From: Escherichia coli
GTDB lineage: Bacteria; Pseudomonadota; Gammaproteobacteria; Enterobacterales; Enterobacteriaceae
Direction: 5' to 3' (one strand)
DNA length: 64,000 nucleotides
Assembly: GCF_022846255.1 (NCBI RefSeq)
Contig: NZ_AP025682.1
Numbering within the stretch: position 1 is the first letter of the stretch; each line of letters opens with the position of its first letter. Below, piece after piece: positions 54,801 through 60,800 of this stretch. Made by a program: the position numbers.

Positions 54801-57800
54801 GCTGGAAGGTGTTGTGGCAAGCACCATTGAGGTTATTAAAAAAGGCAAATAAGTAGTGACTACATTAACGCTTGTTTTAACAGCAGTAGGGTCTGTTTTA
54901 CTGCTGCTGTTTTTAGTCATGAAGGCGCGTATGCACGCTTTCCTGGCTTTAATGGTGGTGTCCATGGGGGCTGGCCTTTTTTCCGGTATGCCGCTCGATA
55001 AAATCGCAGCGACGATGGAAAAAGGGATGGGAGGCACCCTCGGCTTCCTGGCGGTGGTTGTCGCCCTGGGAGCCATGTTTGGTAAGATCTTACATGAAAC
55101 CGGCGCGGTCGATCAGATTGCCGTCAAAATGCTCAAATCCTTCGGTCACAGCCGCGTGCATTATGCCATCGGCCTTGCGGGGCTGGTTTGTGCGCTACCG
55201 CTGTTCTTTGAAGTGGCGATTGTTCTGCTGATTAGCGTTGCTTTCTCAATGGCGCGCCACACCGGCACGAACCTGGTGAAGCTGGTAATCCCATTATTCG
55301 CCGGCGTGGCGGCAGCGGCTGCGTTCCTGGTGCCTGGGCCAGCGCCAATGCTGCTGGCATCGCAGATGAACGCCGACTTTGGCTGGATGATCCTGATTGG
55401 CCTGTGCGCGGCAATTCCGGGAATGATTATTGCCGGGCCGCTGTGGGGTAATTTCATCAGCCGCTACGTGGAGTTGCATATTCCTGACGACATCAGCGAA
55501 CCGCATCTCGGCGAAGGCAAAATGCCGTCCTTCGGATTCAGCCTGTCGCTGATCCTGTTGCCACTGGTGCTGGTGGGGCTGAAAACCATTGCCGCGCGTT
55601 TTGTGCCAGAAGGCTCTACCGCTTACGAATGGTTTGAGTTTATTGGTCATCCGTTTACCGCGATTCTGGTTGCTTGTCTGGTGGCGATTTACGGTCTGGC
55701 AATGCGTCAGGGTATGCCAAAAGACAAAGTGATGGAGATTTGCGGTCACGCGCTGCAACCGGCGGGGATCATTCTGCTGGTGATTGGTGCGGGCGGCGTG
55801 TTCAAACAGGTGCTGGTTGACTCTGGTGTCGGTCCGGCACTGGGCGAAGCGTTAACCGGCATGGGCCTGCCGATTGCCATCACCTGCTTCGTGCTGGCAG
55901 CTGCAGTGCGCATCATTCAGGGTTCTGCCACCGTTGCCTGTTTAACGGCGGTGGGACTGGTGATGCCGGTCATTGAACAACTGAACTACTCCGGTGCGCA
56001 AATGGCGGCACTGTCGATTTGTATCGCCGGTGGTTCGATTGTTGTCAGCCACGTTAACGACGCGGGTTTCTGGTTGTTCGGTAAATTTACCGGCGCGACC
56101 GAAGCCGAAACGCTTAAAACCTGGACCATGATGGAAACCATCCTCGGCACTGTCGGTGCCATCGTTGGGATGATTGCGTTCCAGCTGTTGAGTTAATTAC
56201 TGCGACAAATTACTGCGAGCTTGCTCGCAGTAATTCATTTCTCTTTTCTCCTGTCTTCATCTTTTTGATCTCTCTCGCAAAAAGACCGGAACATTATCCG
56301 TTCTAATCACTGTGTTAACGGACGAGGGAGAAGATGATGGAGAAACACGGAGCTGAATTGCTGTTACAGCGGATGTTAAGTAACACCAGCGCTACTTTCA
56401 GGGAAGGGCAATGGGAAGCTATAGATGCGGTGGTTAATCAGCGGCGAAAACTACTGGTTGTACAGCGCACCGGCTGGGGGAAAAGTGCCGTGTACTTCAT
56501 CGCCAGTAAAATCTTCCGCGATCGCGGCGCTGGCCCGACAATTATCATCTCTCCTTTGCTTGCCCTGATGCGTAACCAGGTTGCCGCCGCTGAACGGTTA
56601 GGTATTACGGCTGAAACGTTGAATTCTACAAACAGGGAAGAATGGCAGCGCATTAGCGATAAGTTGCTGCAAGGTGGCGTAGATTGTCTGCTGATTTCAC
56701 CTGAACGGTTGGCGAATCAGGATTTTCTTGAAACGGTTTTATATCCAGTCGCTGACCGCATCGGTTTACTGGTGGTCGATGAGGCGCACTGCATCTCTGA
56801 TTGGGGCCACGATTTCCGCCCGGATTACCGACGTATATTAGATATTTTGCGCCAACTGCCTGCGAATACCCCTATTCTGGGTACAACCGCGACAGCGAAT
56901 AACCGTGTCGTTGAGGATATCCGTCAGCAATTGGGTGACATTGTGATTCAGCGTGGAACGCTGGCTCGCGAAAGTTTGGCGCTTGATGCCTTAGTCTTAG
57001 GAGAACAGTCATCCCGTCTGGCATGGTTAGCAACGGTTATCCCTCAGTTTTCCAAATCGGGAATTGTTTATACCCTGACGACTCGCGATGCTGAACTTGT
57101 CGCCGAGTGGTTAAGGAAAAATGGTATCAGTGCATTTGCTTATTACAGCGGCGTGACTTGTGAAGGTGCGGAAGATTCTAATACTGCCAGGGAGTATCTG
57201 GAGCAGGCACTGCTGGCAAATAAAATCAAAGTGCTGGTCGCGACGACGGCATTAGGTATGGGATTTGATAAACCTGATTTAGGCTTCGTCATTCATTATC
57301 AGATGCCGGGGTCTATTGTCGGTTACTACCAACAGGTGGGGCGTGCCGGGCGTGCTATAGATTCCGCAGTTGGCATATTGCTTTGTGGTGGTGAAGACCG
57401 CGCTATTCATCAATTCTTCCGTGAAAGCGCCTTTCCTGCGGAGGCGCAAATTCATGAAATACTCAACGTACTTAGCGAGAATGACGGTCTTACCCTACGA
57501 GGCATTGAACAACGGACGAATCTTCGTTATGGGCAAATAGAAAAAGCACTGAAATTATTGGTAGCTGAAAATCCATCGCCTGTGGTGTATACCGAGAAAT
57601 TATGGCGCAGAACTATCGTCAGTTTTTCTCCTGATCATGAACGAATTAACCATTTGATGAATCAGAGAAAAAGTGAGTTGGCAGACGTTGAAAGCTATAT
57701 CACGACCAAGGAGTGCAAAATGCAATTTCTGCGCCGCGCACTCGATGAGCCAAGTGCCGAACGTTGTGGTAAATGTAGCAGTTGTCTTCAGCATCCGCTG

Positions 57801-60800
57801 TTGTCGCCCGACATTGATAGCGGCTTACTCCATGCGGCAAATTTATTTATTAAACACGCTGACCTGCCATTAAATCTCAATAAACAGGTGGCATCTGGGG
57901 CTTTTACGCAATACGGATTTAAAGGGAACTTGCCTGCGGGTTTACAAGGATCTACGGGGCGAATCCTTTCTCGTTGGGGAGATTCCGGGTGGGGAAAGCA
58001 GGTAGCACAGGAGAAAAAAACGGGGCGCTTCAGTGATGAACTGGTGGAGGCATGTGCGGAAATGGTTCGCCAACGCTGGAATCCGCATCCTGAACCAACC
58101 TGGGTATGCTGCGTTCCTTCATTAAGGCACCTCGACCTGGTTCCTGATTTTGCCCGGCGACTGGCGGCGAAACTTGGCTTACCTTTTATTGATGCCATTG
58201 AAAAAGTCGTGGACAATCCACCGCAGAAAATGCAGCAAAACCGTTTTCACCAGTGTCAAAATCTCGACGGGGCGTTTGTGATTACCCCTCCTTTGATGCC
58301 AGGTCCGGCGTTGCTGGTTGACGATATCGTGGATTCTGCATGGACGCTGACAGTTCTGACAGCACTGTTACGCCAGGCAGGTTGCCTGACGGTTTATCCT
58401 CTTGCCCTTGCTTCTACCTCGGTAAAAAATTGATGAATCTTTCAGCCAATGCTCAAGCAACTCTCCTGCTAACCAGCGATTTTTCTCGCGCGGCGGCGAG
58501 TGAGTATAAACCTCTTAGTAATAGTGAATGGGGGAAGTTTGCATTATGGCTGAAGCACCAACGTATCAGTCCCGCCGAGCTTCTGGTGCCGCAACCGCAA
58601 GAGAAACTTACAGGCTGGAGCGATCCGCGTATTTCTCAGGAGCGAATTCTTGGCTTGCTGGCGCGTGGTCATAGTCTGGCGTTGGCTGTAGATAAGTGGC
58701 AACGCGCCGGTTTATGGATCTTAACCCGCGGAGATGCCGATTATCCCGTTCGCTTGAAAAACCGATTGCGAACAGATGCACCTCCCGTTTTATTTGGCTG
58801 CGGGAATAAAGCATTACTGCAAGCGGAAGGTATGGCGATTGTTGGCTCGCGAGATGCTCCGACTGACGATTTGCGCTATACCCAACAACTGGCCGCGAAA
58901 CTGGCCCAACAGGGGATTTGCGTTATCTCTGGTGGTGCGCGAGGTATTGATGAATGTGCAATGGCCTCGGCTCTGGAGGTCGGGGGAACTGCCGTTGGCG
59001 TATTAGCTGATAGCTTGTTAAAAACGAGTACGTTAGTGAAATGGCGTGAAGGGCTTATAGCAGGCAACCTGGTGTTGATTTCGCCGTTTTACCCAGAGGT
59101 ACGTTTCACCGTCGGCAATGCGATGGCGCGGAATAAATATATTTATTGCCTTGCTGAAAGCGCAATGGTTGTACGTGCGGGAATGACCGGTGGAACGATA
59201 ACCGGGGCGATGGAGGCATTAAAACATCAGTGGCTGCCCATGCAGGTTAAACCAAATCAGGATATGCAATCAGCCAATTCACGATTAGTAGAAAATGGGG
59301 CGTCATGGAGTGCTGAACAGGCTGAGAATGTGACGATCAGACTGCCAGACGTTCCTGGGCTGATGTATGACAGAGCACTCCGTAACGCTCAACCAGAACT
59401 GTTTTCGCTGCACGAAGATGACGCAAATTACGCAGTAATGCCCGCGCATACCCCTGTCGATTTTTATCAACTCTTTGTGGCGGAACTGGCGATCCTTGCA
59501 AAGGAATCGATAAGTATTGAAAGGCTGGCGTCTTGTACTGGTTTAACCATCGAACAAATTAGTGTGTGGCTGAACCGCGCAGAAGAAGAGGGAAGGGTTA
59601 TCCGATTGGGCGAAGGTCATTATCAGTTCAGGTAATAAAACAGGTGCCGCGTCTGGTTGTGTGCAACACCTGTTTGAACCTTACCCCTTCATCCACATTC
59701 GAATGCCGTCGAGGAACATCTGAGTTGCCATCATCACCAGAATCAATCCCATCAGGCGTTCAAGTGCGTTCACCCCTTTCTCGCCCAGCAGACGTAAAAA
59801 TAGCGAAGACTGTAGCAGGATGACAAAGGTGCCGCCCCAGGCCAGCAGCAGAGCAATCACCAGATGTCCCATCTGATTCGGGTACTGGTGAGACAACAAC
59901 ATCAGCGTGGCGAGAATAGTCGGCCCGGCGACTAACGGAATTGCCAACGGCACGATAAATGGCTCTTCACCTGCCGGAAGCCCGCTGCTATTTCCTGAAG
60001 CGCTGGGGAAAATCATCTTAATGGCGATCAGAAACAGAATGATGCCGCCAGAAATGGAGACGGTTTCTGCCCGCAGGCTAAGAAATGCCAGAATTTTCTC
60101 TCCCGCAAACAGGAACACCAGCATCACAAGGAGAGCAATAAGCAACTCTCGCACCATGATTGCCCGCCGTCTTTTCGGTTCAGTATGTTTCAGTACGGAC
60201 ATGAAAATAGGTAGGTTTCCGAGCGGATCCATAATCAGGATCAATAAAACTGTTGCAGAAATGATTTCATTCATAACTCAAATTCCCTGATAATTGCCGC
60301 GGACTTTCTGCGTGCTAACAAAGCAGGATAAGTCGCATTACTGATGGCTTCGCTATCATTGATTAATTTCACTTGCGACTTTGGCTGCTTTTTGTATGGT
60401 GAAAGATGTGCCAGGAGGAGACCGGCACATTTATACAGCACACATCTTTGCAGGAAAAAACGCTTATGAAAAATGTTGGTTTTATCGGCTGGCGCGGTAT
60501 GGTCGGCTCCGTTCTCATGCAACGCATGGTTGAAGAGTGCGACTTCGACGCCATTCGCCCTGTCTTCTTTTCTACTTCTCAGCTTGGTCAGGCTGCGCCG
60601 TCTTTTGGCGGAACCACTGGCACACTTCAGGATGCCTTTGATCTGGAGGCGCTAAAGGCCCTCGATATCATTGTGACCTGTCAGGGCGGCGATTATACCA
60701 ACGAAATCTATCCAAAGCTTCGTGAAAGCGGATGGCAAGGTTACTGGATTGACGCAGCATCATCTCTGCGCATGAAAGATGACGCCATCATCATTCTTGA

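Follow-up and report, generated by a model that had tools for sequence, protein, structure and literature searches.

In the 64,000-nucleotide stretch of Escherichia coli contig NZ_AP025682.1 analysed here (hereafter the window), the interval between gntU and yhgN is filled by two co-oriented open reading frames (ORFs), whereas K-12 (derivative XL10-Gold) has only a spacer of 56 bp at this site. This raises the question of what the two genes encode, how the occupied and the empty site are related and whether the genes serve in defence against phages. We found that they are very probably the rqlH-rqlI operon known from extraintestinal pathogenic E. coli (ExPEC), present here as an intact copy; this operon is a member of the PsyrTA family of toxin-antitoxin and anti-phage systems. 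An earlier note on this DNA had likened the pair to PsyrTA (RqlHI) and had stated that K-12 has no genes here; both claims proved right, the former through full-length profile matches and near-identity to the gene pair of strain CFT073. The operon is already known in E. coli at the same locus and the feature is not new; it carries little weight as a discovery, since publications already describe the operon, report that it behaves as a toxin-antitoxin pair and list it as a defence system, and PADLOC, a standard tool, detects it. The points to record concern annotation, namely a probably overlong call of rqlI by the NCBI Prokaryotic Genome Annotation Pipeline (PGAP), a toxin pseudogene in O157:H7 strain F1273 and some DpdF profiles that cross-match PsyrT. 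About 30% of E. coli, among them sequence type 131 (ST131) and CFT073-like strains, have a resident chromosomal copy.

Identity of the operon between gntU and yhgN

The first gene, rqlH (psyrT; 56334-58433, plus strand), encodes the toxin, a RecQ-family helicase of superfamily 2 (SF2) whose C-terminus carries a phosphoribosyltransferase (PRTase) domain, and the second, rqlI (psyrA; 58433-59635, plus strand), encodes a DprA-like antitoxin of 400 amino acids. The PADLOC profile for PsyrT matched the product of the first ORF with 1064 bits (residues 3-698 of 699, profile positions 4-687 of 689), and the profile for PsyrA matched RqlI with 671 bits (residues 1-400 of 400, profile positions 1-397 of 398), so that the PADLOC search proposed in the earlier note recovered both proteins over their full length. 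The family is covered by Sberro 2013, Millman 2022 and the PADLOC entries PDLC03928 and PDLC03927, and its arrangement, in which a toxin composed of a RecQ-like helicase and a PRTase precedes a DprA-like antitoxin, is that seen in the window.

Strain CFT073 carries a RecQ-family helicase gene and a DprA-like gene at the same gntU-yhgN position. Only 2 of 698 residues in RqlH differ between CFT073 and the window (R63 here versus H, and L684 here versus P), and RqlI is identical. Proline at position 684 is found in CFT073 and in two other E. coli alleles, and the position is variable across the family. With residues counted from the second methionine, which is the PGAP start, K49 is the lysine of the Walker motif, D148 the aspartate of DEAH and D663 the aspartate of the phosphoribosyl pyrophosphate (PRPP) loop, and these are the same numbers as those of the residues mutated in the study of RqlH-RqlI from the ExPEC strains F11, CFT073 and 536 (PMC4670107). 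CFT073 was among the strains used by Russell & Mulvey 2015 (PMC4670107), and the species, the gntU-yhgN position (as in CFT073), the gene order and the overlap of stop and start codons are all shared with the window.

The reading frame of rqlH can begin at either of two ATG codons, at 56334 or 56337, both of which are preceded by a Shine-Dalgarno-like GAGGGAG (56324-56330, plus strand) read from the sequence. The product has 699 amino acids if translated from the first and 698 if translated from the second, which is better spaced to GAGGGAG and is the start chosen by PGAP in identical loci.

The description of RqlH as a RecQ-family helicase in the earlier note was well founded. The NCBIfam model TIGR00614 (recQ_fam) matched with 250.9 bits, above its cut-off of 219.8, and both the DEAD and Helicase_C domains of Pfam were found. 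The helicase core, delimited by these domains, by a motif search and by PDB matches, spans residues of about 20-345 (56391-57368, plus strand) and contains the motifs TGWGKS (Walker A, residues 46-51), DEAH (149-152), WGHDFR (RecQ aromatic loop, 157-162) and QQVGRAGR (motif VI, 333-340). Downstream of the core, a regular-expression search of the translation gave a RecQ-type zinc-binding motif, C-X16-C-X2-C-X2-C, at residues 461-484 (57714-57785, plus strand), and Pfam RecQ_Zn_bind weakly matched residues 444-485. The best PDB matches by sequence and by fold (Foldseek) were RecQ catalytic cores, and the full-length AlphaFold2 (AF2) model, with a predicted local distance difference test score (pLDDT) of 72, retrieved RecQ cores only. 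Judged by these motifs and those of the PRTase domain described below, all catalytic motifs of the operon are intact.

RqlH is nevertheless not a canonical RecQ. Its core shares the RecQ motifs and the zinc-binding site, and its best PDB matches are the RecQ proteins of E. coli, Cronobacter and Deinococcus, but the core is followed by a PRTase domain and no HRDC domain was detected in the protein. The scores against the canonical RecQ models were far below the cut-offs (TIGR01389, 293 bits versus 640; NF008279, 223 versus 1015). The RqlH proteins of Gram-positive bacteria (cf. Mycobacterium smegmatis RqlH) also differ from the one studied here in that they usually lack an RqlI partner.

At the C-terminus, the match to Pfam Pribosyltran (PF00156) was weak in RqlH itself (E=0.0058; residues 606-687, the core of the PRTase domain at 58149-58394, plus strand), and 23 of 25 homologs matched it at E<=0.001. 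Since a sequence search of this domain against PDB yielded no significant match and the full-length model retrieved only RecQ cores, we modelled residues 545-698 alone. The resulting AF2 model had a pLDDT of 84, and its top 31 PDB matches were all of the PRTase fold at TM scores of 0.4-0.6, including PurF, HGXPRT, PRPP synthetase, OPRT and ComF (type I); together with the Pfam matches of the homologs, this supports a PRTase fold for the domain. The motif ALLVDDIVDSAWTL is located at residues 659-672, and within it the PRPP-binding loop ALLVDDIVDSAWT at residues 659-671 (58308-58346, plus strand), identified by reading the motif, contains the aspartate that corresponds to the published D663. 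The earlier note had called this a degenerate PRTase-like motif. The presence of a C-terminal PRTase motif was correctly seen, while the term degenerate was mistaken because the motif is required for toxicity, which the D663A mutation abolishes (PMC4670107).

The same C-terminal region, residues 626-699 of PsyrT (58209-58430), was also matched by two PADLOC profiles labelled DpdF, PDLC02869 (74 positions, 2e-52) and PDLC02866. They match the PRTase end of PsyrT and not a helicase, look as if they had been built from PsyrT-like fragments and could lead to mislabelling.

The stop codon of rqlH (TGA, 58431-58433) and the start codon of rqlI (ATG, 58433-58435) overlap by one base, in the sequence TGATG, and the two genes are translationally coupled, as the earlier note had stated; rqlI is also co-transcribed with rqlH (PMC4670107). 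The frame of rqlI is open from 58340, where PGAP places the start, which gives a product of 431 amino acids and an overlap of 94 nt with rqlH. The PsyrA profile starts at the methionine encoded at 58433, and the ATGAAT at the stop overlap is kept in six loci of other genera, for which gene callers give PsyrA lengths of 391-463 amino acids. On this comparison, the PGAP call of 431 amino acids is probably 31 codons too long.

A DprA/SLOG fold had likewise been proposed for RqlI, and the Rossmann domain at residues 89-292 (58697-59308, plus strand) did match Pfam DNA_processg_A (2.2e-50) and SLOG LDcluster4 (1.8e-10). The nearest sequences in PDB were DprA proteins and the antitoxin ShosA (9vzo/8zva), and structures of PsyrT or PsyrA were not present in the PDB copy searched. 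RqlI is not a canonical DprA/Smf, for which its scores were below the cut-offs (TIGR00732, 101 bits versus 191; NF008007, 80 versus 495), and the canonical dprA of E. coli is located elsewhere in the genome (PMC4670107).

The closest mechanistic parallel is ShosTA (PMC11961720, PMC12961424), which also has a DprA-like antitoxin; PsyrA matched the ShosA profile at 6e-27 and PDB entry 9vzo at 2.6e-7. In both systems the toxin has a PRTase domain, depends on its PRPP-binding site and provokes filamentation and damage to DNA. The two toxins differ in that the PRTase of ShosT is joined to a pyrophosphatase-like hydrolase domain and that of RqlH to a helicase, and the two antitoxins differ in that neutralisation by ShosA reportedly does not occur through binding of the toxin, whereas RqlI co-precipitates with RqlH. 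The pair in the window is not ShosTA itself, given that neither the whole of RqlH nor its isolated C-terminal 210 residues matched the ShosT profile and that a helicase core is present. ShosT was also absent from the top 50 fold matches of the RqlH C-terminal domain.

Distribution of the occupied and the empty site

The comparison of strains suggested in the earlier note showed that the pair is not universal. K-12 lacks it, and it was found in 1650 (30%) of the 5426 complete E. coli genomes, always on the chromosome and, in the records examined, between gntU and yhgN, while only the flanks were matched in about 70% of the genomes. Of the carriers, 727 genomes were >=99% identical to the window and another 923 were 95-99% identical. 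ST131 has the allele of the window at 99.8%, and UTI89, like K-12, lacks the module.

Not all copies are intact. In O157:H7 F1273, rqlH is a pseudogene (locus 402-2526) whose frame is shifted near codon 200 and in which 28 nt are duplicated near nucleotide 1790, and the antitoxin gene beside it is intact. Because the toxin gene of F1273 is a pseudogene, presence counts of PsyrTA may overstate the number of functional systems if other O157:H7 strains are alike. A fragment was also seen in the E. coli sequence NZ_OZ501598.1, which matched positions 1515-3302 of the query only, that is, the 3' half of rqlH and rqlI; the orphan PRTase part is labelled 'ComF family protein' by PGAP.

Outside E. coli, the gene order gntU-PsyrT-PsyrA-yhgN-asd was found in Citrobacter freundii, Silvania hatchlandensis and one further enteric lineage. 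In a second further enteric lineage, known from a metagenome (L010), the module is present without yhgN, and 358 nt (8303-8660) separate the PsyrA gene from asd. Relative to the window, the flanking proteins of the occupied loci are 92-98% identical, PsyrT 70-74% and PsyrA 57-63%. Empty gntU-yhgN sites were found in E. coli, E. whittamii, Escherichia sp. MOD1-EC7003, Pseudescherichia vulneris and Citrobacter sp. wls619, and they share a homologous GCCCGGT...ACCGGG hairpin, which resembles a repetitive extragenic palindromic (REP) element in the latter two. The occupied sites of five lineages share a hairpin that is different from that of the empty sites.

The occupied and empty sites thus represent a presence/absence polymorphism across species boundaries. 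Both haplotypes predate the species, as each recurs, with its own hairpin, in other genera. With both occupied and empty sites among the outgroups, the difference between the window and K-12 is compatible with insertion in the one or deletion in the other, so that the word inserted in the earlier note is a guess. For 10 species pairs, the identity of the flanks correlated with the identity of PsyrT with rho 0.54 (p 0.10), which is no more than suggestive of vertical descent of the module.

A separate, clearly mobile variant of PsyrTA occupies a type I restriction-modification (R-M) operon, where it lies between hsdS and hsdR, in Proteus terrae and a Pseudomonas sp. The PsyrT proteins of this variant are 65% identical in amino acid sequence to that of the window and 99% identical between the two genera, and the variant is adjoined by HTH_17/Cro-like genes. 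A related copy embedded in an R-M operon is carried by the E. coli IncF conjugative plasmid NZ_OX030731.1, with 66.5% DNA identity to the window. These R-M-embedded copies, in surroundings typical of defence genes, are a clear case of horizontal transfer of a composite defence island. In the phage genomes searched, only distant DprA-like genes with <35% identity were found, and none of the phages carried PsyrA.

Function of the module and competing explanations

Published experiments establish how the operon behaves. Left unrestrained, RqlH is genotoxic through its C-terminal PRTase domain, with mutagenesis among the effects; in MG1655, RqlH alone induces the SOS response, makes the cells filament and leads to loss of viability, and RqlI rescues the cells (PMC4670107). 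Toxicity is lost on deletion of residues 509-690 and in the mutants D663A and DIVD663EVME; the isolated PRTase domain is harmless, so that toxicity needs the rest of RqlH too, and helicase-dead mutants are toxic in a D663-dependent manner, the helicase ATPase helping to restrain the PRTase (PMC4670107). RqlI neutralises RqlH and binds it via the C-terminal portion that contains the PRTase; it co-precipitates with full-length RqlH and not with RqlH 1-509, and the F11 proteins were expressed in MG1655 in these experiments (PMC4670107). For ShosTA, PRPP binding by the PRTase is likewise essential for toxicity and there are disturbances of both purine metabolism and DNA integrity, and ShosA has both single-stranded DNA (ssDNA) and RecA as binding partners (PMC11961720, PMC12961424). 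The role of PsyrTA against phages, also claimed in the earlier note, agrees with the passages cited here from Millman 2022 (bioRxiv 10.1101/2022.05.11.491447), in which PsyrTA, "also called RqlHI", stands among the two-gene toxin-antitoxin systems in phage resistance; in the same passages, transformation with the psyrA deletion is said to have failed, for which toxicity is a possible reason.

By analogy with ShosTA, we infer that the module would act as a defence of the abortive-infection type in which the PRTase is released on phage infection. Infection may tip the balance between the two proteins, either through loss of the antitoxin or when the helicase meets phage DNA or replication intermediates. 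The released PRTase would then consume PRPP or modify a nucleobase or DNA, and the DNA damage that follows would abort the infection. The R-M-embedded relatives in Proteus, Pseudomonas and on the E. coli IncF plasmid provide a defence context for the family.

Several observations count against this explanation, in particular against defence by the copy in the window. With the native PsyrTA of E. coli NILS69, no protection against the phages tested could be detected either by deleting it in its own host or by expressing it in MG1655, where a growth defect was the only effect. Loss of both rqlH and rqlI left fitness unchanged, in vitro as well as in mice (PMC4670107). The published experiments were made on other alleles, and residue 684 is L in the window and P in other E. 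coli alleles. The copy in the window is located alone between core genes, outside defence islands and without mobility genes, which sets it apart from other members of the family. It also differs in its PRPP loop. All three divergent chromosomal E. coli alleles examined have DSAWT, with the alanine codon at 58332-58334 in the window, while all 24 homologs from outside E. coli have DSGWT, as does the copy on the E. coli IncF plasmid. As read from these sequences, alanine in place of the conserved glycine could weaken catalysis in the chromosomal E. coli proteins; beside this, RqlH of the F11/CFT073 type is still toxic (PMC4670107).

One way to accommodate these observations is that the chromosomal enterobacterial PsyrTA is a long-lived balanced polymorphism in which an attenuated enzyme has taken on another function, with the mobile R-M-embedded relatives as the true anti-phage form. 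We regard this as unlikely. It is motivated by the fixed gntU-yhgN slot in several genera with its own conserved hairpin, by an equally old empty haplotype, by the glycine-to-alanine change fixed in the PRPP loop in E. coli and by the absence of phage protection in one native host. If true, the role might be, for example, against plasmids and other mobile DNA, or in tolerance of DNA damage under low oxygen.

Another explanation, also improbable in our judgement, is the model drawn by Russell & Mulvey (PMC4670107), in which RqlH and RqlI, the latter as a DprA-like mediator of ssDNA and RecA, form a cooperative housekeeping module for DNA maintenance, for instance by making and resolving a modified nucleotide, and are toxic only when halved. 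The recurrence of the same gntU-yhgN slot in Citrobacter freundii, Silvania and two other enteric lineages, the lack of mobility genes, the conserved expression between strains and the NILS69 result are all in line with such a role. A maintenance function is, however, difficult to reconcile with an rqlHI deletion that has no phenotype and with the absence of the module from about 70% of E. coli genomes. The pseudogenised toxin and retained antitoxin of O157:H7 follow the typical decay pattern of toxin-antitoxin systems, divergence is much faster in PsyrT and PsyrA than in the flanks, close relatives reside within type I R-M operons on mobile DNA, and a member of the family is listed as conferring phage resistance in the passages of Millman 2022 cited above.

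The toxin-antitoxin behaviour (PMC4670107) would also be expected of a selfish addiction module, that is, a chromosomal pair kept because loss of the antitoxin kills and without benefit to the host, and the silent double deletion and the lack of defence in one native host fit this as well. We consider it quite unlikely, since the module is not on a mobile element here and there is therefore nothing to stabilise; moreover, the empty allele is common and occurs across phylogroups, which indicates that the module is easily lost or replaced, and members of the family are found in defence contexts.

A module for natural competence, with a ComF-like PRTase, a helicase and DprA acting in the uptake or processing of transforming DNA, is a very unlikely candidate. 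The authors of the operon study pointed out that its domains parallel those of ComFA/ComFC and DprA (PMC4670107), and the parallel is visible here in the DprA Rossmann/SLOG domain of RqlI, in the ComF-like type I PRTase fold of RqlH, for which ComF was the fold match of rank 28, and in the ComF label that PGAP gives to the orphan C-terminal fragment. Yet both proteins are under the curated thresholds for competence proteins, including the canonical DprA model TIGR00732, no transformation was detectable in the authors' strains (PMC4670107), and neither the toxin-antitoxin behaviour nor the R-M-embedded relatives fit such a function. Finally, a fragment of a Dpd system for 7-deazaguanine DNA modification and restriction, with the helicase as DpdF, can be dismissed almost with certainty, for although several PADLOC DpdF profiles match the helicase core with up to 303 bits and PsyrT and DpdF are both in the RecQ clade of SF2, the NCBIfam DpdF model (NF041063) scored 147 bits versus a cut-off of 550, the PsyrT profile scored 3.5 times higher and over the full length, the DpdF profiles that match the C-terminus are short and resemble PsyrT fragments, and no other dpd gene is present in the neighbourhood, which consists of gntRKU on one side and yhgN-asd-glgB on the other.

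Borders of the segment and other features of the window

In an alignment of the window with the empty site of K-12, similarity ends directly after the gntU stop (56196) and restarts exactly at the yhgN stop (59681). The segment absent from K-12 is therefore 56197-59680, and it replaces the 56-bp spacer of K-12 rather than interrupting it. It includes the whole rqlHI/PsyrTA module and the flanking hairpins of the module, and its G+C content, 0.45-0.54, is unremarkable. The earlier note had placed an insert at 56251-59680, after the terminator of gntU; a segment foreign to K-12 is indeed present there, but it is slightly wider, and the terminator hairpin belongs to the variable segment and not to the shared flank.

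This hairpin (56208-56235, plus strand), found by a terminator scan, has a stem of 12 bp and a loop of 4 nt followed by a T-rich run, and folds with -16.6 kcal/mol (z -5.1). Its arms CTGCGAG/CTCGCAG are invariant in the occupied loci of 5 lineages and specific to the occupied haplotype. At the other end, folding identified an inverted repeat between the stops of rqlI and yhgN (59638-59675). On the minus strand it folds with -18.5 kcal/mol (z -3.5) and is followed by UUUUAUUA, and on the plus strand it folds with -14.5 kcal/mol (z -2.0). It is probably the yhgN terminator, possibly a bidirectional one, and was not among the terminators called by the consensus scan.

A search for direct repeats, att-like sites and genes for transposases or integrases at the borders of 56197-59680 gave short chance repeats only, and the segment is thus not a recognisable mobile element. 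Upstream of rqlH, a scan for the sigma-70 consensus gave no match on the plus strand; TTGAT and AAT blocks are conserved across the alignment of five genera at a spacing unlike that of a standard -35/-10 pair.

A search of Rfam returned nothing in or beside the rqlHI module. It identified two ordinary E. coli features elsewhere in the window that are unrelated to the module, the small RNA (sRNA) RyhB at 51060-51124 (83 bits) and naRNA4/CssrE at 26598-26676 (65 bits). Between ggt and yhhY, the window has 57 nt (50361-50417), about 2.7 kb fewer than CFT073, in which this interval holds tssD/yhhZ (Hcp-like), yrhA, yrhD and yrhB. Elsewhere, the window and CFT073 share 98.7-99.5% identity.

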